From positions 39,866,001 to 39,930,000 of the forward strand of contig OX638156.1 in assembly GCA_951804945.1 (NCBI GenBank): a DNA stretch of 64,000 nucleotides, given 5' to 3'. This stretch comes from Podarcis cretensis. Its lineage: Eukaryota. The notes below the pieces were generated by a model. That model searched no databases. It saw only the letters and a program-made list of their open reading frames with translations, and was not told the DNA's origin. Made by a program: the position numbers and the translations under genes. This document shows positions 16,870-38,600 of this stretch, in pieces (within the stretch, counting starts at the first letter, position 1; every line of letters starts with the position of its first letter).

Positions 16870-16912
<43 letters not shown>

Positions 16913-18954
16913 CCAGGCACACAGACAAAGCATTTCTTGGGCTTCCAGTGTGCATGATGTCACCACCACCTCTCTACTCTGCTGGTGGCTACAATGTTAG
17001 GGATTTATGTAGCATATTTTGCCTGCCCCCACATAAATCGCTCCCTGGTGAAGTTCTTAATTTTCAGCGCTTCAACAGGCATTCCCAACCACTGACTAGC
17101 TTCCATTGTGCTTGTATGCATGTGTACACATTCTCATATTCTCTCTGTTTGTCTGTCTGAGGGGTAGATGGCGGATCATTGCAATAGAAATAGCCAAGTG
17201 TGTCAATAGTTGACTGTCAGGTTTCTTTTTTTACTCCCAGTTGGCTCTGATCCAGAGTTTGCTCGTTATGTGGCTGGGGTCAGTCAGGCCATGCAACAAA
17301 AAAGGCAAGCACAGCACTTCCGTCGCCCCAGCAACACACGTAGCAACTGGCCGCATCCTGACGACCCACACAGAACCTGGCCTTTCCCAGAGTATTTCAC
17401 AGAAGGGTAAGGAGCTATCTGTGGCACCCTTGTGTACATCCAGCTTTGCAAGCAGCTGTAAAATATAGTAAAGTAGGGATTTTTGCTGCATCAGTTACAT
17501 ATCTTGTTTAGACATACCTACCCATATGCTTAGAAAGTTGAGGTAATTTTAATCTGTTTTAGTATTCAAACTTTTATATGTTTTAAAGTATAGTTGTGAA
17601 TTTTTCTCAATTTTATTGTTTTAACTTTTTGTAAACCACTTTGAGGGTTTTGGTTTTTTTTACAATCAAGTAGTATATAAATTTTAGTGTGTGTGTGCGT
17701 GACCACTTTGCGTGTGCCCAATTGACATGCAGCTGTCAACACGTGTGCTGCTTTCGTTCCCAGAAGGGGTTGGTGTGGGGGCAGAATGAGCTTACGTGTG
17801 ACTTCTGATGCGCACAATGACCCAGAACGGAACCCCTGTGCAAATAGGGAGTTGCCTGTTTATAATATTTATACTGCAGCTCTTCCAAGTTCAGGATTGC
17901 AGCATGTGGATATTTTCTGCTTTGGTTCTGAGGCCATAATGCAAGGGCAGCCAAGGTATCACTTTTCTGATGTGGTTGGACTCCAGGTCCCATCATTCCT
18001 AGCCATTAACTGTGCAGGCTGGAGCTGATGGGAGCTGCAGTCCACAACATCTGCAGGACACCACCTTGGCTGCCGCTGCAGTAATGCCAGTTTTAAAGGG
18101 TTGTTAAGTGAATATGTACTGGGTCCTTAGAGGGGATATGGATTCCATATGCAGTGCCTGAATAAGCCATGGGATAAATGCTGTAAGATGATGCTGAATT
18201 TGTCAGTTTAGTTTTATTTTAGTGTTAGCGTTCATGGAGATTTTTCTTCTTGCCCTGTGAAGGTTCAGTAACGTTTAAGAGCAACTAGGGTGGTGAGCCT
18301 CCCTGCCACCGCTCACATCTCTACTGTTTGTCTCTTTCTCTTGATTGCTTCCCTGCTCTCATCTCAGGGAGATGGCAAGCAGCTGGTCAGGTACTCAGGG
18401 CGACTCTGCCAGCTCCAGTGATGAGACTTCCTCTGCCAATGGAGACAGTCTGTTTTCCATGTTCTCAGGGCCAGATATTGTTGCTGCAGTCAAGCAAAGA
18501 AGGTGAGTTGAATTATTGACAAAGCAATAGGCAAAATCTTTGGTTTTGCTGGTGGATAAAGATTTTGCCACCTTAACTTGCAAGGGTCAGGCTGTTTCAA
18601 AACTTTCCTGTGCCAAGTGTGAGTCACAAGGTCAAGCTAGGTTTGGAAATAAGAAAGAAATCTGAACTACTCTTGGCTGTCTTGCCACCTGTGTTTTGTT
18701 TCTCCTTTAATGTTGCCTGAGCTTGCAGTTGTTTCAGCCCTTTGAAAGAAGCAAGAAAAGAAACCGGGGCCCAGAGGGTTTGGGGAATATGCTATAATCT
18801 TCCATTTCTGGTTGTGGTTCTGACTACTTTTCCCTTAATTTGTCTTGTCGGATTTATTCCTGCTCATTAGTACGTGCCTGCATTGGTGGAAGCTAGGAAA
18901 GCCACATGGACGTGCTGCATGTGTTACGTCTCTGCTATAGTGACAGGCGTGCTC

Positions 18955-18987
<33 letters not shown>

Positions 18988-21112
18988 GAATAATAATAGA
19001 CATGTGGCAAACAGGTATTTGAAAATCAAATGTGGATTGGCTGTGGCTCCCTCTTGAGCACACCCAGCAGCAAGCACCAGATTTGTGGCTGTGAAATAAC
19101 CATGAAGCTACTAAAAGTGCCCAGTGACAGAAAAGAGGATCCACAATTGAAAGTCCAGTTAATCAGTCCAATGTCACACAGTTTTGACAACAGCATGCCT
19201 GGCGTTGAGTCCATGTTCATAAATACTATTCCTCTGAAAACCAGATGCTGCTGAGGCAGAGCTGCTACTGCCAAGGGAGGTCTGTAGCCTTGCTGTCCTG
19301 CTTGAAGGCTTCCCCAAGGCATAAGCCAAGCTATTCTTAGGGACAAGAACCCTGTGGTCCCTAATGAATAGTGATTGTGACCATCCTACAGCTATTTGAG
19401 CAGGACTGGACAATTAAATATTAAGTATTGCAAAAGTACAAAACCCTGCTTTGCTGCAATATCAGAAGCACTGGTCCACCAATTTTATTGGCTGCAGTAC
19501 GGCCTAGCTGCTGCTGTGCCATAGACTTCTATCTGCCTTGTTGGCTAGGTGTCTGAAAGTTTACTTTAATCCATAAACCTTTAATTGCCATGAAAGTAGC
19601 GGGTTAGATGCAAAGGCCCTTAGTACAAGTGCACTTCAGTTGTAAGACTCCTATTGCCCTCTATTTTGACCACGGAAATACAGCATAAAGTGTTGTCAGA
19701 ATTGAAGAATATTTTCTCATTTAAGACCCTGCCATGACACTAACAGACCATTTTCTCTCATTGGATAAATATTTCCACAGGAAACACAGCAGTGGGGAGC
19801 AAGACCCAAGCACACTTCCTTCCCCACCACTCCTTTCTACAGTGGATGATCATAGTCAGGCAAGTATCAGGCTGAATAGTGCCTCTTTTTGGGTGGCTAA
19901 TGGTGGAGGGGGCCTCTTTGATGGGATTCCAGGTGGCTTTAAAAAAAAAAAAAAAAATCCCTCAGTAACAATGTTCCCTGAACTCAGCCCAGTTTTAAAT
20001 AGTCAATTTCACTATACTTCCAGATTTTATGGCCAGCAAAACTGCACTGCTTCATTTTTTATTATAAACAACTGAATATGCTCCATGGAATTTATTGGAG
20101 ACTTCAAAATGTTTCACTTTTACTTTGATCTTAGGGAGTGTAGAACCATTGGAGATGCATTTCCCCCTCCCCCTTCTCTGAAAGCCAGATAATATATTGG
20201 GCTGCTGGGAGAACTTCCCAGGTGTATGGTATTGCTCTGTGTGGTGATTTATGTAGGAGGGCTTTGACCCCAACAGGCTGCCAAGCAACATGGCTGGGTG
20301 GCTCTTCCTCCTTCCCAAGGGAGTGCTTTTGGAGTGTTGCAGAAATGGCAAAGAGGTGGTACTAACTGCAATAATAGTCCAAGTTCTAACCAGGGTAGGA
20401 GAAAGAACTATGGGAGAGTTTCTTCTTCATTGCTCCCCTCCCATTTGTAAAAGACAAGAATATCGTCTCTTCCTGCTCCTGGATTCTGTGGCTTTAGTGC
20501 TCTCTAGGGACACTGGAGGTGGGGCTATGAGTGGGCCCCTTATGTGTGCTGTTGGTCCAGGATGTAGTGGTTTACATGGGACAAACTGCTCCAGTGGGCA
20601 AGATTTCTGGAGATGCCCCAGGAGTTCAAGTCATCAGTGGGACAGGTTACCTTGCACTCTGATAATGTTCCTGTGTGACTGTCATTCACTCGTGTGGAAG
20701 AAAGTGGTATACTAAGGAACATTTGCAGCAGGGCCAGAAATGGTTCCTGGCCGTGGATGTGCAGGAAGGAAGCTCAGATGTTGTCATTGGTCTCTTGCAG
20801 GACAATAAAACCAAAACCTGGCCTCCGAAAGCTCCTTGGCAGCACACACTGCCCAGTCAAAACATGTCTTTGTACCAGATGAGTAGCCCTGCCAGCCAGT
20901 GGAATGACACCATGCAGATCCTGCAGTCACCCGTTTGGTCCACAGCCAACGATTGCACACCATCAACAGGGATTTCCTCCACTTTTGCCTATGCGCAGCA
21001 GCAGCAGCAGCAATCGCCGCCGCCGCCATCTCAGCACAAACCGATGAATAAGGGCTTTAAACCTTTTCCAGTCAAGCACGAACGCAGGCCATCTTACATG
21101 CATCAGTACTGA
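3346..21112 (+). CDS. GARRE1: Granule-associated Rac and RHOG effector 1 (KIAA0355), 3' portion; N-terminal exons lie upstream of the window
   Basis: Phase-consistent exons: 3346-3552, 4408-4548, 4851-4946, 5058-5219, 7399-7557, 10281-10378, 10508-10633, 14739-15760, 17241-17406, 18368-18502, 19781-19859 (GC donor), 20801-21112 (TGA). The translation (VLGRCFLTVMQVHFQFL...ATSRLRERGCDGCLAGIEVQQLFCSQS...LPTDQEMQEVIDFLSGFNMG...QGPRNNTWPNRDQSDG...DNKTKTWPPKAPWQH...ERRPSYMHQY*) matches KIAA0355/GARRE1 as I recall it. Confidence 0.93.
5585..5810. mobile_element. Tc1/mariner (pogo/Tigger-like) MITE
   Basis: TA|CAGTGGTACCTC ... GAGGTATGACTG|TA terminal inverted repeats with TA duplication; internal TAACCTGAA repeats. 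Confidence 0.85.
10794..11149 (+). mobile_element. Full-length Sauria SINE
   Basis: tRNA-like head GGGACGCGGGTGGCGCTGTGG...GGTTCGAATCC, tail CCCTTTACCTTTAC, perfect 13-bp TSD TAGTGGGAATGTA at 10781-10793 and 11150-11162. Confidence 0.92.
12623..13606. mobile_element. Non-autonomous hAT DNA transposon (984 bp)
   Basis: Imperfect TIRs TAGCACTGGGCGATAT / ACATCGCCCAGCCCTA; perfect 8-bp TSD TTCAGAAG at 12615-12622 and 13607-13614; GC-rich interior with no transposase ORF. Confidence 0.88.
14141..14245. mobile_element. Short palindromic MITE-like repeat (related copies near 3027-3092, 31966-32087, 41280-41392)
   Basis: Shared core CTAAGT..TACTCA.AGTAGACCCAT.GAAATTAATG with an inverted second half. 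Confidence 0.55.
15403..15429 (+). repeat. Coding (CAG)8CAA polyglutamine tract in the GARRE1 large exon
   Basis: Direct reading; further short CAG runs near 15376, 15469 and 20996. Confidence 0.9.
16871..16912. repeat. (AGAT)n microsatellite
   Basis: About 10 perfect AGAT units. Confidence 0.95.
18955..18987. repeat. (TAT)n microsatellite
   Basis: About 11 TAT units. Confidence 0.95.
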
Positions 21113-23250
21113 CGGCTTTTTCTAGCAAGAGATGCCGCAGAGGACCAAAGTCTTTGATGTGACAAACGTTTGCTTTGTTTTACAGTTGTGCGGTGGTGGC
21201 TGTCTCTTCTGGTGGTTCTGTGGAGTGACAGCTTCTAGTGGTGATTCTCTCTCTCTCTGTAGAGTGCTGAGCAAATGGTGCCAAGGTGTTACATGTACAC
21301 ACAACAGCCCTAAACTGTGATGCTTTCAAAGCGTATATGGACTACCCTGCTAACAAACTGCTACATTATTACCACAGAAAACACTGTATTTTATAGCTAT
21401 TTTTTCATATAGATTTATAGTTACCATTTCTTGCTAAAACAAATTTGAGTACATTTTTAAGCAAATCTAGCAGTTTTGCTCAACACTCCTTTTCTTTAGA
21501 TTTCTAATTGACAAGGTAAAAAGTCTTCACTCCGGTGACATCGGCTGCTGTAGCTTTTTTAATGCATCAGTTGTTAACGTGCCACACAAGCTCCTGGTCA
21601 CAACAGTGGTGCACAGACAACTACAAAAAGCTTTTTCCAGTTATTTGCTTCATGCAAAAATAGCTGGAACCACTCCAGCCCAGGCAACTTGTGACATAAC
21701 TTAATGGACACAATCCACCTGTAACCTGAGCTCAAGATCCATAAAGTAGTTTGGGGTGGATTGTGTTCATCTGTGGCTGACACTACATTAGAATACACAA
21801 TTTGATACTTTTACATTTGGCCAAAGGCATTATCCATACAGTGCTCCTTAATGTATGAAAAATAGTTAAGACTACTTGCAAATATTTAAAGTCTTATTTC
21901 AATGCTAGACTTATTGTGTAAAAACATGAGCTGGCTCAGAAGAGAGAGAACTTAAAAACACTATTTTTTTGTAGTGCTAATGATTAAAGTAACTACTTTC
22001 AGTCAATATGTGCCATTAAATAAATGAACCTGTGGAATTAGGAAATAACCTTCCAACCAAAGTGGATCTGGGGGAATGACTGGTGCTTAAATTGAAAAAA
22101 AAGGTAAATATGTATAGTTATCCCATTGTATATTAATTGAGGTGAGAGAAGTCTTTATAAAAACCTATTTAAATTTTCATATTTCATCTTTGAAAGAGTA
22201 ATTATAAACCACAATATTTTCTGGTATAAAGGTTTTTGACAGTATTAATATTATTTTTATATTTTCTTAAGTCATATCATTCTAATACATTGACAAGTAA
22301 AATGGGTTATTAGTTATAAATGCATATAGTTTTTTGATGAAGATAAAAGCACATTTAAGTTCCCATTTTCTACAAACGAAGTACATGTGTATATTAAAGA
22401 TACCAAATTATATATAAATATATATAAATAAAATACACAACACTAAACGTTGGGGTGGGCAGAGTCGAGGAACCCCTCCCCCGCCTTCTGCTTGTGTGGT
22501 GATGGGCCACCTTGGCAGGCCCAGAATGTTACTATTTGTGCTGGTTGAAGATGCCAATGTTGCCTGTATTTATGATATTGTCACCATGTTTCCTCAAAAC
22601 CCACCCTTACCATGTTTACAGAGTTGTTTGCTGTGCATAACTTTAGTCATGTGCTTTGCACAATCAGTGTGGCTTCTGTCTGTAAATTGTTAATGTTTTG
22701 TACCTTCTGCTAAAAATGTTGGTGAATTTAACAAGTGGGGTTTTTTTTTGTTTTGTTTTTTTAGTTTCCTGGAGTACAGCATTGAAAACTTATATTGGAC
22801 CCTACAATCTATTACAGTTGTATGCCACAATGATTTCAGGTCAAAGTACAGATGTTTGTTGCGTTGACGTTCCCTACAGAGCATCTAAACTGCAGTTGCA
22901 AATTTGAGTGGTAAATACAAGCACTGGCAGTTTCTAAAATTGGAGTGAATTGTGGAAATACAGGTGTGTCAGTTTCTGTCTAGTAGGTGCTACATCATCC
23001 TCTGCTTCCAATTATGCTGAACACTGGTAATTTTCCCAAGTTGTTTGCACTTGGCAACCAAATGTTGCCATGTGATGTTTCACACTGCCAAGTGCATGGG
23101 GTTTGGTGCTTAGTTAACTTACCCTTATTGCAGTACTTCTGTGAATAGCTAATGCTTTGGAACTGGAATTGTACATTTTGTATTTTAATTTTAAAGCTCC
23201 TGTAAGTAAAAATAACCTTATTTGCTTTATTAAAGATATACCTTTAATAG
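21113..23250 (+). other. GARRE1: GARRE1 3' UTR (AU-rich) with candidate polyA signals
   Basis: AT-rich stretch with no recognised transposon after the stop codon; AATAAA near 22427 and ATTAAA at 23229-23234. The end point is inferred. Confidence 0.55.
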
Positions 23251-24416
23251 TAGGTTATATCTTGTTAAAATAAGGTTTCTGCTGAAGATAATGAGCACCA
23301 TCAAGCTGCAAGTTAATTTCAGTGGAGCTTTCCTTGCTAGCCCCCAAATTACAACATTCACACAAATAGATACATGCTCTGAGCTGAAATACCCCTAGGT
23401 CTGTCCCACTTTGAGGATAAGGCATGATTGTGGAATTACTGAAAAGATGGCACATTCACTCTAGATGCAGCTGGATCACAGTTGGTATATGAGGGTCTTG
23501 TGTGTGTGGTGGTAGGGAAAGAAAATCCAAAGTCTTATTGGACAGAGGCAGGCCCCTTGCAAGGAACTGTTGAATCCGAGCCTTGCAAAAGCAGGCTCCA
23601 TCCCTTTGTTTCAGTACTAATACCCAACACTTGATCATCTCTGTGTAGTCTTCCTCAGCCTAGTGACTACAGCTTCCAGCATCCCTTCCTATTGGCTGTG
23701 TTGGCTTGGGCCTATGGGACTTGGAGACCCAAACAGCTGGAACACACCAGGCTGCAGAAGGTTGCTCTGGAGCTTAGAAGAGCCTTGCAGCACGGAAACA
23801 AATACCTTGCTCCTAGATGCCTCCAGGGCAGGAACAAGAGTGCTCTCCAGCTCTTTTCCCACTACTGCCAAGACAGCATGATAGAGAACACGGTCTAGAT
23901 TGGGGGGCGGGGGGCGGAATCCCCTCATAAAGACTGTTATATTATCTCACTTTTGATCCCTCATTCTTTTACTTATTTACAAAAATGAGGCTCTTGTGCC
24001 TTGAAACATTGCTGCATTTGTGAAGTTCCCTCTGCTTGACACGCAGCTGATTTCTCCCCTCCCTGTGCCATTAAGGATTAAGTACTTGCTTGAATTTCTC
24101 AAAAGCATGTGGGTTCCAGCCTGCTATCATAGTGTAACTTTGATAACAGTGATTTTCATTCAGATGCCTCTTTCAGTGTTAACTTACCAAGTATGAAGTC
24201 ATAGGCAAGGAGCATATATTCACAATGCCACATGAAACCAAAAGTCCCGTAACTCCTGCTCTGATGTGGGTGTAGAACTGATGTGGGATCATTTGCAGAA
24301 GTCATTGGAAACCTCACTTACACCATTCCAAAATCAATTTTCTTTGTTGAGCTAGCCTTTAGACTTGGTACCCAGGCCAAGCCAGCCTCAGTCCCTAGCA
24401 TCCTCTATGCTTGCAG

Positions 24417-24553
24417 CAGGCATGGCCAAACTTGGCCCTCCAGATGTTTTGGGACTACAACTCCCATCATCCCTAGCTAACAGGACCAGTGGTGAGGGAT
24501 GATGGGAACTGAAGTCCCCAAAAATCTGGAGGGCCAAAGTTTGGCCATGCCTG
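24417..24553. mobile_element. Palindromic hAT-type MITE (more degenerate relatives near 17950-18080, 23630-23780, 24695-24800, 26515-26640, 36935-37040, 42210-42335, 42396-42500)
   Basis: CAGGCATGGCCAAACTT...AAGTTTGGCCATGCCTG near-perfect fold-back with a GGACTACAACTCCCATC core; 8-bp TSD GCTTGCAG / GCTTACAG. Confidence 0.85.
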
Positions 24554-26269
24554 GCTTACAGTCTTAATACTATTGAGTCTAGGGTATTAAACACATGCTA
24601 TGTGGACACATTTTCTGAATGGAAATGTATCTGGATTCCTAACCCAAGCTTTACTACCTAGCAGACATTGTGTATATTGTCTATAGGTCTTGCCCAGCCT
24701 GTCTCATCCAGATGTTTTGGACTAGAACTCTCAACTCCAGCCAGCTCACATGGGCTGGCTGGGACTAATAGGATGGCATTCAGTTGAAAGGCTGCCCCCT
24801 AGGCATTGGTAACTAGTGTGCTTGGTACCAGAACTATAGCTGGTCCCATAATGCAACAGCACAAGTGGTGAGGGACAGGAATATAGATGATTGCAAGAAC
24901 AGCTGTCTATAAATAGTGTGGCAAAGCTTTTTCAGATGTCAGACCTGGAGCAGGAAGAATAAGTGTCTGCTTCAGGAAGGAAATTTTTGACCAGCATTGA
25001 TGAGTATCTAGAACTCCTGTTTGACACTTCACTGCCTCATTCAAGGCTTGATATGGGCACTCTATATCCTCAAAACCTATCCAACCTGTCCCGTGTAGCA
25101 TCTTGTACTGATGTTTCACTTAAGTATGTGGGCATCTATAGCACTTAAGTTCCATACAGTACCATGTAAGCAGTACCTCACCAACTATTCTGTACATTTA
25201 AGTCTTCGCTTCCCACCATCTTTCTGCCCTTGTCCTCCTCCAAATTTAACAGACTTGTGACAAATAGTTTTGGTTTTATTATTAGAAAATTCATGATTCA
25301 AAATTGCAGAATGTTCTTTGATCCCACTGCCTTAACTAGACAGGTACTATTGTCTTCTTGCCTCACTCTGCTTTAGAACAGGTCTGATTGCCCAGCTACA
25401 ATACAGCATTCTGCCTGGGGAACCTCACTGCATTATCAGGTGTAATTGATGTGAATTTAGCAGCAGTTCCAGAAAGTAATGTTTAAAGTTAGAAAGAACA
25501 TTGAAAATGTATGCTTTAAGTTACAATACCTGGATCTGCTCCACTTGCAGGATACCAAATGATACGGAATTGCTGAAGAGTGCATTCATTCTAGATGCAG
25601 CTGTTGTATGGCTGTATCCTACAGCTGTGCTGCAAAGAACTGCACAGCTGCCATGGACAGCCTCCCAGGGACCCGAGGCCAGTGGCAGAGGCTAGAGAAT
25701 GCCTCCCTTCATCTTGGAGAGGATTAACAGGTGCTTTGCCTCTGGCTCGAGTGTGTTGTGTAGTGGCCTTCATTGTAAGTTGGGAGTAAAAACAATTTCT
25801 AACATGAAACCCCTTTGTATCAATATGCTGTCATTTGTTACTGGAAACATAACTTAGAAACTTTTAGTTAATAAGCATGGTTGGGGGACAGCTCCCATTT
25901 TATACTACTCCTGGTCCAGGGGGGCAGGGGTCCATTCCACCAGCAGTGCAAATGTAGTAGGAGAGGCTTTGCACCACCAGCTTCAGTGATAGAAAGAGCT
26001 GCTGTTACTACTTCACATCAACTCACTATGTTCCTTTTACATTGTACAGCCTTAGGTTTTTTTCTTTTTTAAAAGGAGAGAAATCCCCCCACGCCAACAG
26101 TCCTCCTTTACAATTAAGTGTGCTCTGGCAGCAGCTACTTTGCCTAGTCAGGGGAGGATAGCTGGGGCTACAGCAAACAAGGCAAGTAGTTTTAAGCAAT
26201 AATAAACCAAGCAAGCAAACTCTGGGTGTTTCTGATTGTTAGAGCTGTTTTGACAGTGGAATATACTCC

Positions 26270-26420
26270 ATCGGGAGGTTGTGGGCTCTCCTTGGATGTT
26301 TTTAAGCAGAGTTTGGATGACCATCTGTCAGGGATGCTTTAGTTGAGATTCCTGCATTGCAAGGGGTTGGACTTGATGACCCTTGAGGTCCCTTCCAACT
26401 CTACAATTCTATGATTCTAA
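26270..26420 (+). mobile_element. CR1 LINE 3' end
   Basis: GGGTTGGACTTGATGACCCTTGAGGTCCCTTCCAACTCTACAATTCTATGATTCTA is the typical CR1 terminus. Confidence 0.85.
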
Positions 26421-27553
26421 GTGAAAAGCAGCAATGCACCAGCTCCTCTGCATTCCAAAGCAGCTGTGGTGCTCTTTCGTCACTCATTAATAAAGTGTTA
26501 TTACTGAGGCAATCTTACCCAACCTGCAGCCTCTCAGACAGTTTGAACTTCAACTCCCATGAACCCTGGATAGCACAGCTATGTTGACTGGAGCCAATGA
26601 GTTTTAGTCCAAAACATCTGGAGGGCATTTGCTGGGGAAAACAACTCGTGCTAAGCTACAAAACCAGCTATCCTTTTCCTAAGAATCCATGGGGGGGAAA
26701 CTCAGTTCACTGCCTAGAATCTTTCAGTAAGTACTAGCAAGAAACATTTAAAACATTGCTAGAAAGTTAGCAGTCCAGGAGGGAAAGAAAATAATATTTC
26801 ATAAAAGCACACTGAGAACTATGAGATATGGATTGATCTGAAAATATTAAGTGGTTCAAAACAGCCAGTTGAAATATCTTTATTTTTTTCTCTACTGCAT
26901 GTATTTATCAGGATCAATATGGTTTTTACTACAGAAAAGGAATACACATTAAAGTAATCAAAGCTTAGCAGTGCCCTTTACGAGTGATAATGTTTAATTC
27001 CATACAAATAAGAGGCAAAAGGAGGTGTTTTGTCAGTAGGCATGTGACAATTCTGTCTTCCAAGCACTAACGGGTAACTGCATACACCACCACATTGTTA
27101 TAATCTCTTGCTCTTTTCACCATATCCGGAATAAGATTTTAATGTAAAAATGCTAAGTACCCCTTCTTTACCAACCTTCTTCATGGGTCACTGGGCTAGA
27201 ATGTAATGTCACCTGGAGAACTGATGCTCTGAGGCAATGGCAAATGTTGATAATAATACCCATCAACCTTGACCTTTTAAGCAGTGACATTGTAGTTGAA
27301 GGAATATGCAGTGCACTATGTCATTTTTCCTTTTGCACCCAAGGTGGGGGTAAAGCAAATAGAATTTACTAGTTGATGGCAAAGAGGATGAAATGAAGGC
27401 AGGAATGTGTTCTGTTAAGGAAGCATAATTCAGCTGGCTTTCCATCAGGTGCTGGATTTATTCCTCTCCTTTAAAGAGGCGGGGACTAATGGATCTTCCA
27501 GATTCACTCCCCATTTCCTTCAAGGATTCACAAGTGTGCCAAGGAGCACAGTA

Positions 27554-27647
27554 TCAGTCTGCAACAGTCTTCCCTGCATTTGGAGAGGGAGACGCATCTG
27601 CAATAGTAGCTAAATAAATCAGGTTTCTGTGCAGTGTGTGCTGGTGT
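27554..27647 (-). CDS. SS18L2: SS18L2 coding exon 3
   Basis: HQHTLHRNLIYLATIADASPSPNAGKTVAD*, preceded by a polypyrimidine tract and ttacag. Confidence 0.92.
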
Positions 27648-29655
27648 CTGTAACAGAGAAACAGAAGAATGAGATTCCTTAGGGCAACTGAAATAACAGA
27701 ATTGCTCTGGCAGCCAGCATACAAGTGACAGTAGGATTTAGGTCTCTATTTTGCTCACTTTATACTTGAGAAAGCAGGGGGAAGGGAAGAGTTGTTAATT
27801 AATATGAAGCCAATAATATTTTTGAATCCTCTTAGCTACTTTCCCCTGTTCCTGATAGTATTTTATTTTTAAATTGAAGGAAATGTTTTTTTAAAAAATA
27901 TACTAATTAAGTCAATGTTTTGTTGTCATTTAGTCGTGTCCGACTCTTCGTGACCCCATGGACCAGAGCATGCCAGGCACTCCTGTCTTCCACTGCCTCC
28001 CGCAGTTTGGTCAAACTCATGTTGGTAGCTTCGAGAACACTGTCCATGTTTAATGATCACTTAATTCCTGCAAAGGCATAGATGAGTGGGCAATGATGCA
28101 CACTGGAGCACATCATTCTAACTTTACATTCGCACTGATGTCTGAACTAGCAGTGTCTAACCAGGGAAGATCTTGGGGTTGTGGTACACAGCTCTATAAA
28201 ATCATCAAGCTTGTGCAGTGGCAGCAAAAGGGGAAAATGTTAGGGATTATTAGAAAAGAAATTAAAAATAAAACAGCCACTATTACAATGGCCTTTCAGA
28301 AGTCCAGGGCTGCCAAGAAGAAGGGGTCAGTACATCTGTAAGCTATTACCTCCCACATTAAATTCAGCAAAATAAACAAGATTTTCATTAATGCCCTGCA
28401 CAGTCTGGTTGTGTTTGACAGACTAATTGCATTTATTTCAGCAACAATGTGCCTGATTTCAGTTCTCCTTCACCTCCCCTGTAAATTTGCTCAGGACCAA
28501 TGAGATTTATTCAAAACCACGTCTCGCAATGAGACACGCAAGCTCTCTAAACAGTTACTTGATTGTTTGCTTTAATCAAGCAAATACAAAAATGAAGTCC
28601 TGAAAAATGCATAATAGGCGACTCTTAGATTGAATTTACTTACTGCACACATTCTTCAGCTCTTCCTTTATTCTGATATTCCACAATACATCGAATCAGC
28701 TGGTCATTTTCTTCAAGCAGCTGAAAGTCACAACAGCACTGGATCAACTGCATATTACTGAAACTTGTTCAAGAACAACTACTTAACAATTACACTGGAT
28801 AATTGTGAGGATGCTTTATAGACTGTGAACTACCATCTCACGATCAAGGAGGCAGTGTGTGTGGGGGGGGGGGGGGGGTCAGAGGCTTCAAAGGCACCAG
28901 GGAACAATTTTAAGAGCACCATGGTGCCCGCAGGTGTCCTGATGACCCCTGATTTCAGATTATTAAAGTGGTGAGTGAAGAATATCCGGTGTCAACTTCA
29001 GTCGTCAACTTACAGACTTAAAGGGTGAGTTTTCTTTCTGGTAGCGTTAAGGGTTTACTGTTACTGCAAAAGATATAGGATATTCTAGCAGACTATGCTA
29101 TTCATTTGTTTTAGTCATCTTTCTGGCGGTGTACCGCTTTTTATTGCACTTGGTTATGTCCTTTCGCTAAGCGATCATGATCGAGGAGAGTGAAGGAGCC
29201 GAACTGCGCAGCGACAGTGATTCCGCCCATCCCTGAGAATGTACAGAGTGCACTGCCCTTCCTAATGCGCAGGCGGATCAGAGTGGGCGTTCCTTGACCA
29301 GGCTCGCTGACGTCACGCTCTCAGCTTTTAAGCAGCCCGGACCATCTTCACGCAGCCTGCAAGAGGCGAGGAATGAAATGGCAGAGACACTTCCGGTTCT
29401 AACTGATTAACTAACTAACCCAATACAAAGAACCTGGCCAGGAAACCAGAGAGAGAAGGTAGAGCGGCGCTCTGACGCCTCCCGACGTTCTTGCCTTTCC
29501 TATGGCGGCGTACGGGAGTTAAAAAGAGGGCTGCGTGAGCGACGCTCCCCTCCGCTCTCTCTATGGCGCCCGTCCCTTTCGCTCACCCGTTGCAACGTCT
29601 CTTGGTTCACCTCCGCCTTGCCTCGGAGTTTCTCCGGCACGAAAACCACCGACAT
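27554..29655 (-). CDS. SS18L2: SS18-like protein 2 (SSXT/SNH-domain small protein), complete 3-exon gene, 79 aa
   Basis: Exons 29655-29587 (MSVVFVPEKLRGKAEVNQETLQR|gtgagc), 28720-28644 (tttcag|LLEENDQLIRCIVEYQNKGRAEECVQ|gtaagt) and 27647-27554 (ttacag|HQHTLHRNLIYLATIADASPSPNAGKTVAD*). 69+77+94=240 nt in frame with canonical GT-AG sites. Closely resembles human SS18L2 (MSVAFVPDWLRGKAEVNQETIQRLLEENDQLIRCIVEYQNKGR...LHRNLIYLATIADAS). Candidate minus-strand AATAAA at 27457-27462 and 26879-26884. Confidence 0.93.
27921..28045 (-). mobile_element. BovB/RTE LINE 3' fragment in SS18L2 intron 2
   Basis: Reverse complement of ...GTCCATGGGGTCACGAAGAGTCGGACACGACTAAA...(CAA) tail; possible TSD ATGTTT. 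Confidence 0.85.
28160..28300 (+). mobile_element. Old CR1 ORF2 fragment
   Basis: Decayed motifs resembling EKDLGV...CAVAAKxxxMLGIIRKxIxNKTxxI. Confidence 0.55.
28644..28720 (-). CDS. SS18L2: SS18L2 coding exon 2
   Basis: LLEENDQLIRCIVEYQNKGRAEECV(Q), flanked by tttcag and gtaagt. Confidence 0.92.
29587..29655 (-). CDS. SS18L2: SS18L2 coding exon 1
   Basis: ATG at 29655-29653, 23 codons, then a CGG|GTGAGC donor. Confidence 0.92.
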
Positions 29656-29689
29656 GCCAGCGGAGGGAGCGGCAGCGGCTTCTAAGCCT

Positions 29690-30620
29690 CACGCGAAAAG
29701 TGGGCCGCAACGCAAAGGTTGATGGGAGCAAAAGGACAATACTTTGCACCGATTGGCTGCCCCTGTGCGGCCTGGGAAGCTCCCGTACATGAATGCAGAT
29801 CATTAAATGTAGAGTAGTCCATATCCCGGTGTGACTAAGAAGCTTCCGAGTCTTTAAAATTCCGACCAGTTAAACGGGTTAGACTACAGTGAAAGAATTT
29901 ATGTGTGTATATGAGAGGGAAGGTGGAAGACAGGAGTGCCTGGCGTGCTCTGGTCCATGGGGTCACGAAGAGTCGGACACGACTAAACGACTAAACAATA
30001 ACAACATGAGAGGGAAGAGTGTGCCAATCAATTTCTAGCGTGACGGAAGAGGGAGGAAAACTTTACTTTCTCCGCGCTATGCATAATTTTGTGGATTTCC
30101 ATCACGTCAGGCTGCAGCATAGACCGTGCTAATTAAGGGGCCCGCTCGCCACTCTCTTTCCAAATCTACGCTCACTCGCAGCAGAGACGCGGCTTCTCCG
30201 ACTAGCAAAGCTTGCAACCAAAATTCTCAAGTTAACCCGGGAGCTGCAGTTCGCGCGACTCTACATCCTTCCTTCAGTCTATAGTCTACGTATCAGAGGA
30301 ACTCCCTCCCCCCCTCCCCCCCCCCGAAGCCTTCGTAGCAATTGGCCCGTCGGGCCGGTGGAGGCGGGCTCTGAAAACAAATTACGACGGCGGGGCCTCG
30401 GTTGTGTTGGGAAGGCGGGCTTTGGGCTGATTGGCGAGCCGGAAGTCTCGAGGGGCGGATATGATTGGTCAGGGGCACGAAAGGTGGGCGGGGCCAGGTC
30501 GCGGTGAGTTGCCAGGGCTCCGGTTGTCAAGCGGCAGCCAATCAGGGTGGGGGATGGGAGCGGGTGGGGGAGGCGGAGAGCGCTGAGAGCCGTTCAGACG
30601 GAGGAGCGCGCGGGTAGGAG
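29690..30620. promoter_or_regulatory. Bidirectional CpG-island promoter shared by SS18L2 (-) and KATNB1 (+)
   Basis: CpG-rich. CCAAT/ATTGG boxes at about 29752, 30341, 30430, 30464 and 30538; ETS CCGGAAGT at 30439-30446; GC boxes near 30452 and 30486. A probable non-coding KATNB1 first exon ends at the donor CGG|GTAGGA at 30613/30614. Confidence 0.75.
29923..30005 (+). mobile_element. 5'-truncated BovB/RTE insertion in the bidirectional promoter
   Basis: GGAAGACAGGAGTGCCTGGCGTGCTCTGGTCCATGGGGTCACGAAGAGTCGGACACGACTAAACGACTAAACAATAACAAC; perfect 12-bp TSD ATGAGAGGGAAG at 29911-29922 and 30006-30017. Confidence 0.9.
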
Positions 30621-32099
30621 ACAAGCAAGGCCGGCCGAGACGGGCCTCACGTCGGGGTAGGCCGTGGGTAGCCGCAGCAGCCCCCACCCGAAACCTCCCT
30701 GGAGGGGCCGCTGGCCCGGGAAGGCCTTCGGGCTGCCACCCGGGGCCGGGCCGGCCTGTTTACATTCCCTCCTCCGAGCAGGTGCTCGCCTGTCCGGCGG
30801 TGTGTGCCTCGGAGGTCCCGGCCAGGCCTCGACGGAGGAGAGAGGGCTGCTTCTCCTCCGGGCACCGCATGAGGTGGATGGGTGGGATCTTTCTCTCCCC
30901 GGGAAGAGTTGGCTGGCCTAAGAGAAAGGATTTCCTCGGGGCTGAATGGGATCTGCTGCCCACAGCACTTTGCGGGGTGGGGGTGGGAAAGTTCACAAGC
31001 TCGGGTGGCTGCCTCAGATTCGAGTCACTTGCTGGGAGGTGCTGACTGGGAGAGGGACGCTGCCCTCGTGCCCTGCTTTGTGGGGTTCTTGGGGGGGGGG
31101 AGATCTTTCTGGGTCTTAAATAGGCCTTTAGCCTGATCCAGTTAACAGGGCTCTTCTGAGAAGCTGCTGAGATCACCTTGCCTACGTCACCCATAAAAAC
31201 TCCATCCTGCCTAACACCTGCAGGGATGCAGCACACATGTATTTATTTGTTTCATTAAATGCTGCTTGATTATAAAAGCAAAAGCTCGAAGTGTTCTACA
31301 AAAATAATAAAGCATTGCAGTTATTAGTAAACAGAGGCAATATTTTAAAACATTGAAAAGTAAATAAGGTTGGCAATAAGCAAAAACAAAAAATAATGAT
31401 TAAAATATGTGTCAGCATCTTGCATACATGAGTAGGCTTGCTTAAGCAGACATGTTATTGGCAGGTGCCAAAAACAGTACTGTGAAAGTGTGGGCCCTAC
31501 CACACTAAAATATTGATTTCTTACCAATGTGGAATAAGTATTATTTGCCACCTGTAACAGAGGCAGTTCAGCAGTTCTGTACAATGGGGTAGTAATCCTC
31601 AATCTGGAAATTACATGTGCAAGTGGAAATTTGACAGTAAATTGAGGAGTGGAGCATGCAGACAAGAGTTACCTCCCTCCTGGAGGCAGGCTGTGAACAA
31701 AGTCTATTTTTGAAGGCCACCTGTCAGTTTTAGGGATCCTGCTTTCAGGATCAATTCTGTGCCCCACTGTCTGTCTCTGCACTACTCCCAATAGTTGTGC
31801 TAGTTGTATCCCAAAGCAACTGAATAACACCAAGTTGTCAAAGTCTGCTCTAATTTATTGATCATTGATGTAATGACAGAAGTACCTGTTATTGTTATTG
31901 GGAGATACACAGAAAAGTACCGTAGGAGTTCCTGATCACTTACATTCCATGTTAAAAAACATAATTGGGTTGTATCCAGCCAAGTACTACTTGGAATATA
32001 TCCAGTACAATTAACGTACCTAACTTAGTCATGTTCATCAATTTCAGTGGGTATACTTTGAGGAGGACTAATACTGTATGCAGCCCAATTCTGGAAATA

Positions 32100-32290
32100 C
32101 AGTCATACCTTGGAAGTTGAACTTCTTACCAGTCGAATGTTTTGGCTCCCAAATGCTGCAAACCCGGACGTGAGTATTTCGGTTTGCATCCAACGTGGGT
32201 TCCATGGGTTCTGATTGGCTGCAGGAGCTTCTTGGTTTCCAGACGTTTTGGAAGTCAAACGGATTCCGTTCAACTTCCGAGGTACAACTG
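32100..32290. mobile_element. Tc1/mariner MITE
   Basis: TA|CAGTCATACCTTGGAAGTTGAA ... TTCAACTTCCGAGGTACAACTG|TA. Confidence 0.85.
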
Positions 32291-32650
32291 TACCTGTTCT
32301 AAGTTATTGTTATAAAAAAAAGATAAATGAAGAAACCTGCTAAGCTCTATTTTAATGTAGTTTTTCTGCTGTGTTTTCTGAACTGGTTAAAACGAACACT
32401 TTCCTCCTAGGTAACTTTAATGACTGCTTCCTGAGATTTTGCTTGCATTCTGGAAGAAATAGGCCACTGAATAAGCCTAGGAGACATATTTGTATTTTTA
32501 AAATAAAAGCGCCATCGCCTTGACTGCTGCAGGACAGTTCAGAAACTTGAACCTTGTATCTGGGGGGTTGAGCCCCACACATGCTGATGAAAACAGAGCT
32601 TTGGGAGAAAAAAGAAGACTGCTTTCTGTAGCTGTGTGAAAATCACTGCA

Positions 32651-35600
32651 ATGGCAGCTGCAGTTGCCACCAAGACAGCTTGGAAGCTGCGTAAGTGAAG
32701 TCCACTCTTCTGCGTTTATAAACGGGATGTGTTCAGTGCCTGCAATTTTGTCTTCCACTCCTGCTCGACAGCTTGGGTTTCAGTGTTCTTCTGATCACTA
32801 GCATCAGGTACCTGCTCCAGCTGCTTAGCTGAGGACTTAGTGTCTTGTGTGGAATTATATTTAAAAAATCTTACTATGGCCAGAAGGGCTTACATTCAGG
32901 CAAGTGGACATAGAATAATTAGCTTAAAAAGCTACAATACATATCAGATATGTGTACCTGTTCACGTATACCTCATCAGTAAATGCCAGCTTAAATGTAT
33001 TGATTTTTGTGTGGGGCTGTAATAGGAGAGAGATGTGATAAAATGTGCTCATGTCTGCATTTGCTTTTTTTGTATAGAGGAAATCACTGCTCACAGCAGC
33101 AATGTTTCTTCACTTGTGTTGGGCAAAAGCTCAGGTCGGCTCCTTGCAACTGGTGGAGATGATTGTCGAGTTAATATCTGGTCAATTAACAAGCCGAACT
33201 GCATTATGGTAAGGATTGGCTAATTTCTCTTTGCTTGTGGGCAATGTGAGTCAGGGAGCAACCTCTGGTATTAGCTTTAGCCACCCTCCTTTCTATACAG
33301 GATCAAACATGAGATGGGAGGTTTATTTTAATCTGTGCTTTCGGTAATTTGGCTAAATACACCTAAGTGAGCCAAAGTATAGTGTAGTTAAGGCCAAAGT
33401 GCTGAGGGAAGAACAAGTTGCATTGACTGGCACCTCATGGATTGTTCCTCCCTCAGTTTGAGGGACAGAGCATGATGGCACCTTCACCTAGCAGTATATT
33501 GCAGGCACTGCTGCTCAGGATATACAGTGATACCTCGAGTTACAAACACCTCAGGTTACAAATGCTTCACGTTACAAATTCCGCTAACCTGGAAGAGTTA
33601 CCTCGAGTTGAGAACTTTGCCCCAGGATGAGAATGGAAATTGTGTGCCGGCACGCAGCAGCAGCGAGAGGCCCCATTAGCGAAAGCACACCTCTAGTTAA
33701 GAACAGTTTCAGGTTAAGAATGGACTTCCGGAACGAATTAAGTTTGTAACTAGAGGTGCCACTGTACCACCAGATAAAGGCACTATTGCACTCTGGCCCT
33801 CGAAATGGTCCTGGGCGATGTATCAATACATCGCCCAGGCCTAAAGATGACATTCTGGTCTCTTCAAAAACAGGAAGTAGTTGGATCTGACATTAGCAGG
33901 GTTTCAGTCAAGTGTCGTTCCTTTGTTTCTCATGCAGATCTGGAGATATTTTCTCCACCACCACCTTGCCCGCTGTCTTTTGACCTATGAGGAGCTAAGT
34001 TGAGCTATTGAGACTTGTATGAGTGGCTGCCTTGGGAGCTGTGGCTGTAGATCCCAGTATGTGTGTAATCCTTTGACTTGGAAGGGCCAAAAATCTGCAA
34101 TGGTATCCCTTTCCACAGCAATGGCCAGTTTGAAATAGTTTTTCTTTTGAATGATTTTTCTTCCGATCCAACTCCTGCACTTTTTCAAAAGGGCATTTCT
34201 CTCCTCTTCCACCCCTGCCTCTCTTTTTTTTGTACGGTAACTTATTAGTGCTGCAGAATTGAATCTAGAGCGGGCATTTCGACTGTTGCAGTACAGAGCA
34301 TGATGTTCTTTGTACTACTGCATAGTTTGTGGGAAGTTTGTGATGCAGCTTCATTTCATGCTAGCTGATGGAGCTGCAATTCATTATACACATATCTAGG
34401 AGTAAGTTGCTGAACTCAGTGGGATTTACTTTTGTGCAGGTAGACGTTCAGCCATAAACCTGCATTTCTGGGTGATATACTTAGTGCACCATTAAGAAGC
34501 ACTTAATGTGGTGGCCAAGCTCTGTATGGCTCTTGGCCTTTGCTTCAACCCTCCTGCAATGGGGCATGGGATTTCCCACTATTGCAGCAAAGCTCTGTGG
34601 GGGAAGTGCTTCTGAGTGTATATTCTGCTGGATTTTATTAGTCAATTAATGACCAGTTGTTGTAACATGAAGAAGTCTTCACTGGGTGTATAAAGGAGGT
34701 CCAGTTTGGCACCAGGTGACATGTGTGTGAGAAAGAGACACTTGAAGGAGGGCCTCTGGTGAACATAGGAAGGAATCAAATTTCTGCTCTTGCTGGAATA
34801 CTGAACTTCAGTGTCTGTCCATGGCTTTGAACGTGGCTTTCACCTAATCATTTCGCTACTTGTGGTGTGATGAGTGTAAACATCCTAGCTGTCCTTGTTG
34901 TTGCATGCCTTCCTGTGGAGTGGGCCACCTTCAGATGATTCACTGCTGCTTTTTCATTTTGCCCAGAGTCTAACGGGTCACACCACACCCGTGGAGAGTG
35001 TGAAGATTAATACGAATGAAGAGCTGATTGTTGCGGGGTCCCAGTCAGGCTCCATTCGGATCTGGGATCTGGAAGCTGCCAAAAGTAGGTTCAGAGCCAA
35101 CTCTTCTATCACTTTTCAGGTTGTCCAGCAGCCCCTTACTTTGCAAAGAGCAGAGAAAGAGAGAGAGAGCGCAAGCATACAAGGAAGGACGATATGCTCA
35201 ACTTTGAAAACTGCAGGGGCACCTCTTCCTCCACCTAGGTGGGAGAGGTGTTGGTACTGTTCAGATGCCAGCCCTGTGAATAAGAAGAGCTGTTTTGTTT
35301 GCACTCAGATCTTTATAATTTTCCCCAATAATATTTATCCATTTGTGTTATGTTTACAGTGCTTAACCTCAGCAGTCAACAATCTTTCTTCCATTACTTT
35401 CATAGAAAAGCAGGTTTTAATTTGATGTGCTTGGTAGATGCTTCTGATTTCTATTTTAAGAGACTGTACAGGAAATGGTAAAACATTTGTATGATTTTCT
35501 TATTTCATTCTAAACCAGATTATTTTTTTAAAAAAGAATTGTACTGAACCATTGAAATAGCAAATCTGATTTGAACTGAAAAACTGTATCAATCCTGCAT

Positions 35601-38600
35601 CTTCTTAGACCATGCTTGCATCTCAATTCCTTGCCCTCCCTTTCCCGTCCAGTTCTCCGTACATTAATGGGCCACAAAGCGAATATCTGCAGCCTAGACT
35701 TTCATCCTTTTGGAGGCTTTGTAGCTTCAGGATCCATGGACACCAACATTAAGGTAAGACTTTTGAGTCTCCCTCACTCCCTGACATCCTGCATGTGTAT
35801 TTCAGAACAGCAGGATCCCCAAAGCGCTGCATATCAGTGGATGTAAGGAGCTGTTTTGTATTAAGTCTGAGGAGTTGTTCATGCAGCCCAGCAATATTCT
35901 CATGGACCAGAAGCCGCTTTCCAGTGGCGTGGGCAGAGCTCTTCCCAACCCTTTAACTATGAACTGATTGTGCACCCAAGACCTCATTTGTGTGTGTTCT
36001 GCACTTCAGCTGACATCCTGTTTTTGAAATTCAAATAGTTGCATACTCTTAGAAAATGTCCCTCAACCCCAGGACTTTTTTAATTGGAGACCGGTGCTTT
36101 GGAAGATCTTCAAGACACTTCCAAGTTGCCATTGTAAAGCTTTTGTCCATTTCCTTCATGCAGCTTTGGGACGTGAGAAGGAAGGGCTGTGTCTTCAGGT
36201 ACAAGGTAAGAAGGAAAGCATATTATTTTGTCTGCAGGGCACCCCTCAAATCTCCTTCTGCCTCTAGGAGTTCTTCCATGTCCAGTTGCTACAGTGTTTC
36301 AGTTTGGAGAGCTCATTGAGGCAATCCCACCCACAGGTTCTGGGCAGTTTACAAAATTCCCAGCGTCTATTACATAAACAGGGTCTACATTGCCAGCCCT
36401 CAGGCCCCACCCAACCAAAGGAAGGGCCAGTGGGGAGAGGGGTCCATTGGGTACTGCTTCTTGAAGGTGCCCAGAGAGGCTTGATGCCATTAATCTTGCA
36501 AGTTAATATCTTCTCATCCCTTTTGTACTTTGGTACTGACCTTCACAGCCACCTTGCATTATTTTTTAAAATAGGGTGCTCCAGTTAAAAAGCATGCACT
36601 CGCTCACTGAACTATAGCACCCCCTGCACCTCTTCCCAAAGTACAACCTCTTCTCCTCCTGTTTTCTTAGCTCCCTCTGACTCGTTTCCAGGGCAACCCC
36701 TTTTTTGTGCTATCTTCCAAAATTCATGGTTTCTTTCCACTGTTGATGGAGCCCTCAGCTGGTCTCTAACATGCCAGCTGCCCCTCACAGCAATTGAGAA
36801 AGGCTCCCCTCCCTCCTAAAGGAGCCCAAGTACTTGGCAAATCATTAAGCTCTTCCCTATCCAATCTCATTTTCCTTCCTTACTAGAAAGTGATATTTAC
36901 AATGTTTGAAGCTGTATCTTGGCTATGTCTAAATGTAGCTTTCACCAACCTGGTGCCTTCCAGATGTTTTGCATGCTGGCTGGGGCTGATGGGAGTTGCA
37001 GTCCAACACATCTGGAGGGTGCCATGTTGGCAAAGGCAGTCTAAGGGATTGTATTTTTTCTCTTGCAATATAGTAACTTCACAACAAGACAGTTGTTGTG
37101 AGACATGCTCAGCCTTCATGTTTCCTGTGTGTGACCCATTGTTTCATCCTGGGAGTGCCGAGCTCTGCTAGGAATGAACTGGGTCTGTTTTGCCTTTACA
37201 GGGCCATACTCAAGCAGTCCGCTGTCTCCGATTCAGCCCTGATGGCAAATGGCTGGCGTCGTCTGCAGACGATCACACAGTGAAGGTACTGGCCTGATTT
37301 TGCTAGACCCCTTTGGCACTCACCTTCCTTCTTGTGGCAGTTTTGACTGCTTGCCACACCAAGAGGTGCTCTTTTGTGCCAAACAATCAGGTATGGGGTT
37401 GGGCAACCTCAAGGCTTTAAGGTTCTTTCTCTATCTAGTTGTGGGACCTGGCTGCTGGGAAGATCATGTTCGAATTCACAGGACACACGGGGCCAGTCAA
37501 CGTTGTAGAATTCCATCCCAATGAATACCTGTTGGCCTCTGGTAGCTCTGACAGGTAAATTCTTGTTGGGAAATAAGTGGGGGACAATAGCATGTAATGT
37601 GGCTCATCTGCAACTTGCAATTATTTGCTGCAGATACTTACATTTTCATTTGTGGAATTGGAATAATTGTTGGTGATGATTGAAACAGCTTACCTTTTGA
37701 ATTTCCTGTTTAGGGAGGCCCTTCTGGCCTCTTCATTATCCTCTTCTGGAACCTAGAACAAGGTCATACCTACCTGAATCTTTTGGTAGATGTCATCATG
37801 CTAGATTTTGGAGTTTGGTATATGCTGATGGCTCTCAAATCTTCTTTCTCTTCTTCCTTGAACCTTGGTGAGAGTATAGAGTCTCTGAAATGATGCTGGA
37901 TAAATGGGCTGGATGAACTGAAGCAGGTTCAGAGGAGGTGTAGATCAAGGGTCAGCAAACTTTTCCAGCAGGGGGCCGGTCCACTGTCCTTCAGGCCTTG
38001 TGGGGGGCCGGACTATAGGGGGGGGGGGAATGAACGCATTCCTATGCCCCACAAATAACCCAGAGATGCATTTTAAATAATTTTAAATAATTTTACTCAT
38101 GTAAAAACACGCTGATTCCCGGACCATCCGCGGGCCAGATATAGAAGGCGATTGGACAGGATCCTGCCCCCGGGCCTTAGTTTGCCTACCCAAGGTGTAG
38201 ATGAACAGTGGGCCTGTTGAGTTGAGAGTAGGTGTAAAATCTGTCTGAATGGCCTTGCCGCCCCTTCTGAAGGAACAGGTTTGCTGCTCAGGGGTGATAA
38301 TTTGAGCCAGCATTACTGCCACAGCTGTGCCTTTTCCCAGCTGCACCAGATATATTTGCTGCACCATCTTGTGTAAGATAAAAGATTTGGTCTCTATCAT
38401 TACAGGAAAGTGTTTTACATAGCTCACAAACTTGGTTCTATTTGGTTTAGAACACAGCAGCTGGGACTGACCTTAGAGAGTGGTTGTTACAGAGCTGCCC
38501 TGGTTACCAGTTGGTTTCTGGGCACTTCAGAGTGCTGTGTTTTCCTTTTAAATCCCAAAGTGCCCTAGCCTCTGGACACTTTGCTCTTAGGTCCCGCCAT

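Follow-up and report, generated by a model that had tools for sequence, protein, structure and literature searches.

The 64-kb stretch of the Podarcis cretensis genome considered here (the window; 64,000 nucleotides of contig OX638156.1, assembly GCA_951804945.1, positions 39,866,001 to 39,930,000) carries four genes in the order GARRE1(+), SS18L2(−), KATNB1(+), KIFC3(−). An earlier note on this DNA, which gave the same genes in the order and orientation confirmed here, read the 11-kb interval from GARRE1 to KATNB1 as an evolutionary breakpoint joining genes of three different human chromosomes. The gene order is instead explained by known results. Beyond these there remains a single, ordinary squamate breakpoint within a chromosome, between SS18L2 and KATNB1, which is a possible phylogenetic marker. 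It is very probable that three layers account for the locus as a whole: an ancestral site of SS18L2 beside GARRE1, an intrachromosomal rearrangement in squamates, and a move of SS18L2 in mammals.

GARRE1 and SS18L2 form an ancestral pair

The features on which the argument depends are as follows.

3,349–21,112, + strand: GARRE1 (KIAA0355) exons encoding residue ∼163 onward, stop codon included (named GARRE1 proteins by tblastn, homolog search, stop codon)
21,113–27,553, no strand: convergent 3′ untranslated regions and intergenic DNA from GARRE1 to SS18L2 (polyadenylation-type hexamers on both strands; no coding matches)
27,554–27,647, − strand: SS18L2 coding exon 3 with the stop codon (Pfam, tblastn, protein match)
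28,644–28,720, − strand: SS18L2 coding exon 2 (Pfam SSXT, E 1.2e-12)
29,587–29,655, − strand: SS18L2 coding exon 1, ATG at 29,655 (protein match, start codon)
32,651–48,225, + strand: KATNB1 coding region, ATG at 32,651, stop codon at 48,223–48,225 (protein match, start and stop codons)

GARRE1 and SS18L2 are separated by 6,442 bp from stop to stop. In the chicken gene tables of Deakin 2016 (PMC4902969, files 4 and 5), ranks 225–232 read LSM14A+, SS18L2+, KIAA0355−, GPI+, WTIP−, UBA2−, PDCD2L−, so that SS18L2 adjoins KIAA0355 (ranks 226/227) at a distance of ∼3.4 kb and in the tail-to-tail orientation of the window. The two genes are also neighbors in the Anolis table (ranks 4/5). Because chicken has the same pair in the same orientation, the GARRE1|SS18L2 junction is not a breakpoint; it is ancestral and unbroken, at least at the level of the sauropsid ancestor. 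An interim guess from gene spacing, which placed SS18L2 ancestrally at the 5′ end of GARRE1 and would have made both junctions derived, was rejected on the chicken strands.

The position of SS18L2 is older still. SS18L2 is found at 2.86 Mb on gar LG23, 115.8 Mb on reedfish chromosome 9, 19.5 Mb on Xenopus chromosome 4, and 10.89 Mb on chicken chromosome 11 (Lamb 2021 Table S1B, PMC8040251; column order taken from the per-species sheets). In the same table, gar, reedfish and Xenopus have the gene in the interval from CEBPA to WTIP, which are the genes enclosing GARRE1 at human 19q13.11; in chicken, WTIP is 0.15 Mb away from it. These positions bear out an ancestral site, which the earlier note had listed as one option. 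In gar and chicken, SS18L2, SS18L1 and SS18 each have a TAF4-family gene at a distance of ∼0.1–0.2 Mb (PMC8040251), and this pairing at all three paralogs suggests that the position of SS18L2 dates to the early vertebrate genome duplications. SS18L2 is a whole-genome-duplication copy (ohnolog) of SS18/SS18L1.

Co-location was assessed from equal contig sizes in homolog searches, which denote the same chromosome or scaffold rather than adjacency. Of the 10 non-therian species that both lists contain, 9 have SS18L2 and GARRE1 on a common contig (Varanus, Phrynocephalus, Pithys, echidna, Rhinatrema, Xenopus laevis, Ascaphus, Mixophyes, and Rhinophrynus), as against none of four therians (Loxodonta, Apodemus, Pteropus, and Colobus). 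The Phrynocephalus locus tags for the two genes, 006426 and 006429, have two tags in between.

GPI, which had been thought displaced from GARRE1, sits on the 5′ side of GARRE1 in Anolis and Pogona, as it does in chicken (PMC4902969). It is therefore expected just upstream of the window. In human, where on the strands that we assume GPI follows the 3′ end of GARRE1, the order requires that GARRE1 was turned around on the way to mammals. The ancestral layer would thus comprise SS18L2 within a CEBPA-TAF4L-LSM14A-GARRE1-GPI-WTIP block, on the chromosome represented by chicken 11, gar LG23 and human 16q+19q, with a tail-to-tail GARRE1/SS18L2 pair and GPI on the GARRE1 5′ side.

Identity of SS18L2 and its move in mammals

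The SS18L2 gene of the window has three coding exons separated by GT-AG introns (n = 2) and encodes a 79-residue product, identical at 79/79 residues to Lacerta agilis/Podarcis SS18L2 (entry P0008). Exons 2 and 3 score above the Pfam cut-off for the SSXT domain (PF05030; SNH), and there is a match to SS18 in PDB entry 7vrb (E 6.6e-16). The protein is short and ends soon past the SSXT domain, as in named SS18L2 orthologs; each named vertebrate match is either SS18L2 or an unnamed-product entry that carries the domain too. Domain, short length, tree grouping and position beside GARRE1 all agree that the gene is the SS18L2 ortholog. A retrogene origin was rejected, as the lizard gene keeps two GT-AG introns. 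The Varanus SS18L2 model (P0001) is 479 residues long and includes a reverse-transcriptase domain, probably an intronic long interspersed element absorbed into the gene model.

A tree was built from 41 named SS18L2 proteins over 79 columns, leaving out unnamed, most partial or alternatively spliced, and redundant entries, as well as SS18 and SS18L1. Its topology is largely that of the species phylogeny, and 10 of its 38 inner branches have strong support. One group each is formed by the squamates (100/98), the birds (96/89) and the eutherians (97/93); therian copies fall within the amniotes (94/89), and amphibians lie outside. The window protein is placed inside the squamates with Rhineura (98/81).

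SS18L2 is on chromosome 6 in opossum and chromosome 3 in human, and it is named in the main text of Lamb 2021 (PMC8040251) among five ohnologs probably translocated in the stem mammal; the mammalian move to 3p22 is thus already published. The relocation that had been suspected on the lizard side is not needed given the outgroup positions, and the move is mammalian. Named therian SS18L2 isoforms, for example from Crocuta, Trichosurus, Balaenoptera and Rattus, part from the usual sequence at two positions that coincide with the lizard introns, which argues that the moved gene kept its introns and was transferred at the DNA level, not by retroposition. The co-location of SS18L2 and GARRE1 in echidna suggests, indirectly, the therian rather than the mammalian stem as the time of the move. 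In this layer, SS18L2 would have left the block by an intron-retaining, DNA-level move, presumably being copied first and then lost at the old site, and this probably on the stem of the therians; the human lineage would later have split 16q from 19q.

A copy-then-loss move passes through a two-copy stage, and a 79-column tree is compatible with a duplication shortly before the monotreme-therian split. Both points allow for the lizard gene being a second paralog lost in mammals, with the 3p22 gene a distinct old copy, as the earlier note had also considered. We regard this as very improbable. The Lamb tables (PMC8040251) have an SS18L2 entry for 6 of 7 species, and one gene in each of these six. 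Among the 91 homolog matches, no non-mammal has SS18L2 at two distinct loci, as both entries from Pogona have the same C-terminal sequence. The moved marsupial (opossum-type) and unmoved echidna proteins are near-identical, with end branches of 0.025 and 0.015, though they reside on different ancestral chromosomes. A second paralog is not needed, and none is seen among the 91 matches or in the Lamb tables, a scope narrower than a whole-genome search.

The SS18L2|KATNB1 junction is derived in squamates

The contact between SS18L2 and KATNB1 has a different history. In chicken, KIFC3+, KATNB1− and CCDC135− (DRC7) form a separate group, with KATNB1 at 0.48–0.50 Mb between KIFC3 and CCDC135, while SS18L2 is at 11.69 Mb beside LSM14A, ∼11 Mb from KATNB1 in the Deakin assembly (tables of PMC4902969). 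Anolis GL343773.1 reads KATNB1−, SS18L2+, KIAA0355−, GPI+, which is the order of the window on the opposite strand, and Pogona scf000233 reads LSM14A+, PDCD2L+, UBA2+, GPI−, KIAA0355+, KATNB1+, KIFC3− (PMC4902969). The neighbors at SS18L2|KATNB1 thus differ from those in the chicken outgroup, and the junction is present in independent assemblies, directly in Anolis and by flanking genes in Pogona. SS18L2 and KATNB1 share a contig in three of four squamates (Varanus, Pogona, and Anolis sagrei, by equal contig size); KATNB1 and GARRE1 do so in two of three (Varanus and Sceloporus, not Gekko japonicus). SS18L2|KATNB1 is the only derived junction, and it is intrachromosomal. The 11-kb interval therefore does hold a breakpoint, at SS18L2|KATNB1, but not at GARRE1|SS18L2, which is the same in chicken. 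Likewise, the position of SS18L2 is standard in non-mammals, whereas its contact with KATNB1 is squamate-derived.

Gecko KATNB1 is found on very large contigs, of 205.9 Mb in Paroedura (a ∼206-Mb chromosome; P0121) and 178.2 Mb in Gekko kuhli (P0185/P0187). Paroedura SS18L2 is on a 41.5-Mb contig (P0026), suggesting a separate interchromosomal move in geckos. Gecko KATNB1 thus seems to be on another chromosome altogether, and geckos may either have lost the junction or never have had it.

Could the contact instead be ancestral, with birds and mammals rearranged away from it? Chicken chromosome 11 has rearrangements of its own, and the nine breaks on the Pogona scaffold are unpolarised. We nevertheless consider this very improbable. 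CCDC135 (DRC7) adjoins KATNB1 in chicken, and DOK4, CNGB1 and MMP15, neighbors that stand in for KATNB1 (itself outside the Lamb table), are on the same chromosome as the SS18L2/WTIP block at a distance of 8–45 Mb in gar, reedfish, Xenopus and zebra finch (PMC8040251).

An assembly mis-join is next to inconceivable. The window contains no N gaps, and SS18L2, GARRE1 and KATNB1 are all on one 14,945,196-bp scaffold in Varanus. The order in Anolis, the flanks in Pogona and the shared contigs of Varanus, Pogona and Anolis sagrei show that the junction is no assembly error and predates the separation of lacertids and iguanians.

Several points weigh against the overall interpretation. The lungfish is the sole SS18L2/GARRE1 mismatch among the ten species, on a 2,000,000,000-bp contig that resembles a split chromosome. 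For frog, caecilian, echidna and monitor lizard, the data reach no further than a shared contig, and gene order directly beside SS18L2 is covered for chicken and Anolis and, by flanking genes, for Pogona. Pogona SS18L2 is unannotated, and we infer its place in a 5.5-kb gap (PMC4902969). In the gecko Paroedura, SS18L2 and KATNB1 are not on one contig. The SS18L2 tree has only 79 columns, with 15 of 38 inner branches open. Finally, a single inversion, which predicts a DRC7-GPI or DRC7-CES junction, was rejected, as Anolis DRC7 is followed by PLLP.

One ancestral chromosome, not three

Ancestral mammal chromosome 9 (MAM9) corresponds to human (HSA) 16q-19q and is one-to-one with chicken chromosome 11 (GGA11) (Damas 2022 Table 1, PMC9550189). 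All flanks of the junctions are on GGA11, LG23 and MAM9, which leaves no interchromosomal junction. The proposed join of three different chromosomes is thus not borne out: human 16q and 19q were one ancestral chromosome, SS18L2 is native to it, and “three chromosomes joined” is a human-centred artefact. That lizards acquired SS18L2 at this site from a SEC22C/NKTR location of the 3p22 type, in a three-chromosome junction, is favored only by the human and opossum positions of the gene and is already refuted by the outgroups, with SS18L2 in the GARRE1 block in gar, reedfish, Xenopus and chicken, beside KIAA0355 in the last, and with the TAF4/SS18 pairing recurring on three paralogous chromosomes.

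Course of the squamate rearrangement

Compared with chicken, the SS18L2-to-PDCD2L block is inverted in place beside LSM14A, with KATNB1 now adjoining the far end of the block (Pogona and Anolis tables, PMC4902969). Since Anolis DRC7 is followed by PLLP, not by GPI or CES, several steps are needed. Rearrangements within the chromosome, most likely several inversions, would have broken DRC7|KATNB1 and LSM14A|SS18L2, turned the SS18L2-to-PDCD2L block around and brought KATNB1 and SS18L2 head-to-head on a single CpG island, before the lacertid-iguanian split; the resulting order is read directly from the tables, and from it we infer the inversions and their date. DRC7 presumably adjoins KATNB1 in human as well, as in chicken.

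On Pogona scf000233, 9 of 53 neighbor pairs jump more than five chicken ranks (54 of the 63 scaffold genes covered; breaks unassigned to lineage). The SS18L2|KATNB1 junction is an ordinary breakpoint, one of these nine.

Other irregularities were noted in this neighborhood. The old Anolis assembly has SLC38A7 after KATNB1, and KIFC3 on a separate small contig (PMC4902969), and one Anolis GARRE1 model (P0257) is fused to an IRF2BP-type zinc finger; each may reflect a local rearrangement or an assembly error. On opossum chromosome 1, 261 Mb separate DOK4 (448.7 Mb) from CNGB1 (710.2 Mb), compared with 0.4 Mb in human (PMC8040251), pointing to a marsupial-line break in the DRC7-KATNB1-KIFC3 neighborhood.

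The region between SS18L2 and KATNB1

29,101–30,950, no strand: CpG island of 1,850 bp, GC 0.58, CpG observed/expected 0.86 (one of two islands of at least 400 bp in the window)
29,700–30,300, no strand: candidate squamate breakpoint zone between the divergent putative promoters, not at base level (from chicken versus Anolis/Pogona order)
29,923–29,998, − strand: 76-nt element resembling a short interspersed element (SINE-like), between the putative promoters (arms 93% complementary to its partner)
27,918–27,993, no strand: inverted partner of the 76-nt element, in SS18L2 intron 2 (93% complementary arms)

The start codons of SS18L2 and KATNB1 are 2,996 bp apart and divergent. The CpG island spans the SS18L2 5′ end together with the presumed KATNB1 promoter and non-coding first exon, and contains CCAAT, GC-box and ETS-type motifs, so that two divergent genes share one island. 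Judging from these motifs, transcription may start at sites ∼0.7–0.9 kb apart. The non-coding first exon of KATNB1 would use a donor at 30,504 or 30,614 and an acceptor at ∼32,631. A second promoter-like cluster, in SS18L2 intron 1 within the island (29,200–29,420; GC box, cAMP response element, YY1-, ETS- and CCAAT-type motifs), may mark a start site that is internal or antisense; it has no Rfam or Pfam match.

The breakpoint is placed at ∼29.7–30.3 kb because each gene is assumed to have kept its own promoter. The 76-nt element, which we take to be a Sauria-SINE, has only two copies in the window, inverted around SS18L2 exons 1 and 2. At 93% complementarity the pair is probably too young to have caused the break, and, as it does not enclose the whole SS18L2 gene, it is an unlikely cause.

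Other features of the window

53,862–58,158, − strand: KIFC3 motor-domain exons, the gene continuing past both limits (Pfam Kinesin and Microtub_bd; PDB KIFC3)

GARRE1 was traced with named reptile and sheep proteins (tblastn) as 10 exon-sized blocks from 3,349 to 21,109, followed by a TGA stop codon at 21,110–21,112; residues 1–162 (the 5′ part) are upstream of the window. A small CpG-rich patch in a GARRE1 intron (10,701–11,150) is probably a young repeat. KATNB1 is identical to Podarcis muralis KATNB1 at 654 of 658 residues, and two of its exons seemingly have GC instead of GT donors (candidate splice points 44,011–44,012 and 39,891–39,892). The top PDB match of the KIFC3 kinesin frames is human KIFC3 (5wde, E 3.8e-41).

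Between GARRE1 and KATNB1 (21,113–32,650), a Pfam scan of 246 of the 420 open frames of at least 20 residues, comprising all those of at least 30, gave two matches to SSXT and two weak ones below the cut-off. None of these 246 frames matches the GPI or DRC7 families, in line with the reported absence of exons of either gene from the interval, although short exons could escape, as did SS18L2 exon 1 itself. No Rfam match reached the gathering score. A repeat search of 20,500–33,000 found one weak direct family, five inverted pairs and no segmental duplication.

Implications

The locus cautions against human-based synteny, as the lizard keeps the older SS18L2 position and humans are the rearranged ones. 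The SS18L2|KATNB1 junction, which lacertids have in common with iguanians but apparently not with geckos, is a possible character for deep squamate relationships, and it offers a natural example of how two unrelated genes come to share a CpG island. The data also hint, indirectly, at the therian stem as the time at which SS18L2 moved. A more extended scenario, which we think rather unlikely as a whole, would make the junction a single rare change marking a lacertid plus toxicoferan (or wider non-gecko) clade, its new working bidirectional promoter kept by co-regulation, and the KATNB1 neighborhood a reused breakage site (gecko, opossum, and Anolis), with the exit of SS18L2 and the flip of GARRE1 relative to GPI maybe one therian event.

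Comparison with known systems

Head-to-head gene pairs on CpG islands are a general class, in which divergent genes share one island with CCAAT, GC-box and ETS-type motifs. SS18L2/KATNB1 resembles this class in these features. It differs in that the pair was apparently made in one lineage by rearrangement and has a SINE-like insert between its putative promoters.

A literature search found no paper on SS18L2 together with KATNB1. Searches on SS18L2 with synteny or with genes of the block, and on KATNB1 or GARRE1 with lizards, gave none on the junction among the matches listed, though supplements may hold more. Two supplementary files of the Indian cobra genome (PMC8075977) have no occurrence of six terms searched, and larger supplements may contain the order; what was seen of PMC10509250 is without gene-level data.

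KIAA0355 is the upstream neighbor of GPI in most vertebrates listed by Tine 2015 (PMC4684624), including Anolis. That micro-synteny survey gives no KIAA0355 strand, does not mention SS18 and overlooks the head-to-head GARRE1/GPI arrangement of sauropsids. The tables of Deakin 2016 (PMC4902969) hold both the order of the window and the chicken order from which it departs; scf000233 does not occur in the main text, where the junction is apparently undiscussed. Damas 2022 (PMC9550189) explains why GARRE1 and KATNB1 are on one chromosome without an interchromosomal event, at chromosome scale only and, in the parts seen, silent on the gene-level junction. Lamb 2021 (PMC8040251) agrees with the present analysis in that the SS18L2 ohnolog is on gar LG23, chicken 11 and Xenopus 4, and that opossum and human alone have it elsewhere. 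The species in its tables include no monotreme or squamate; here, contig sizes put echidna SS18L2 on the GARRE1 chromosome.

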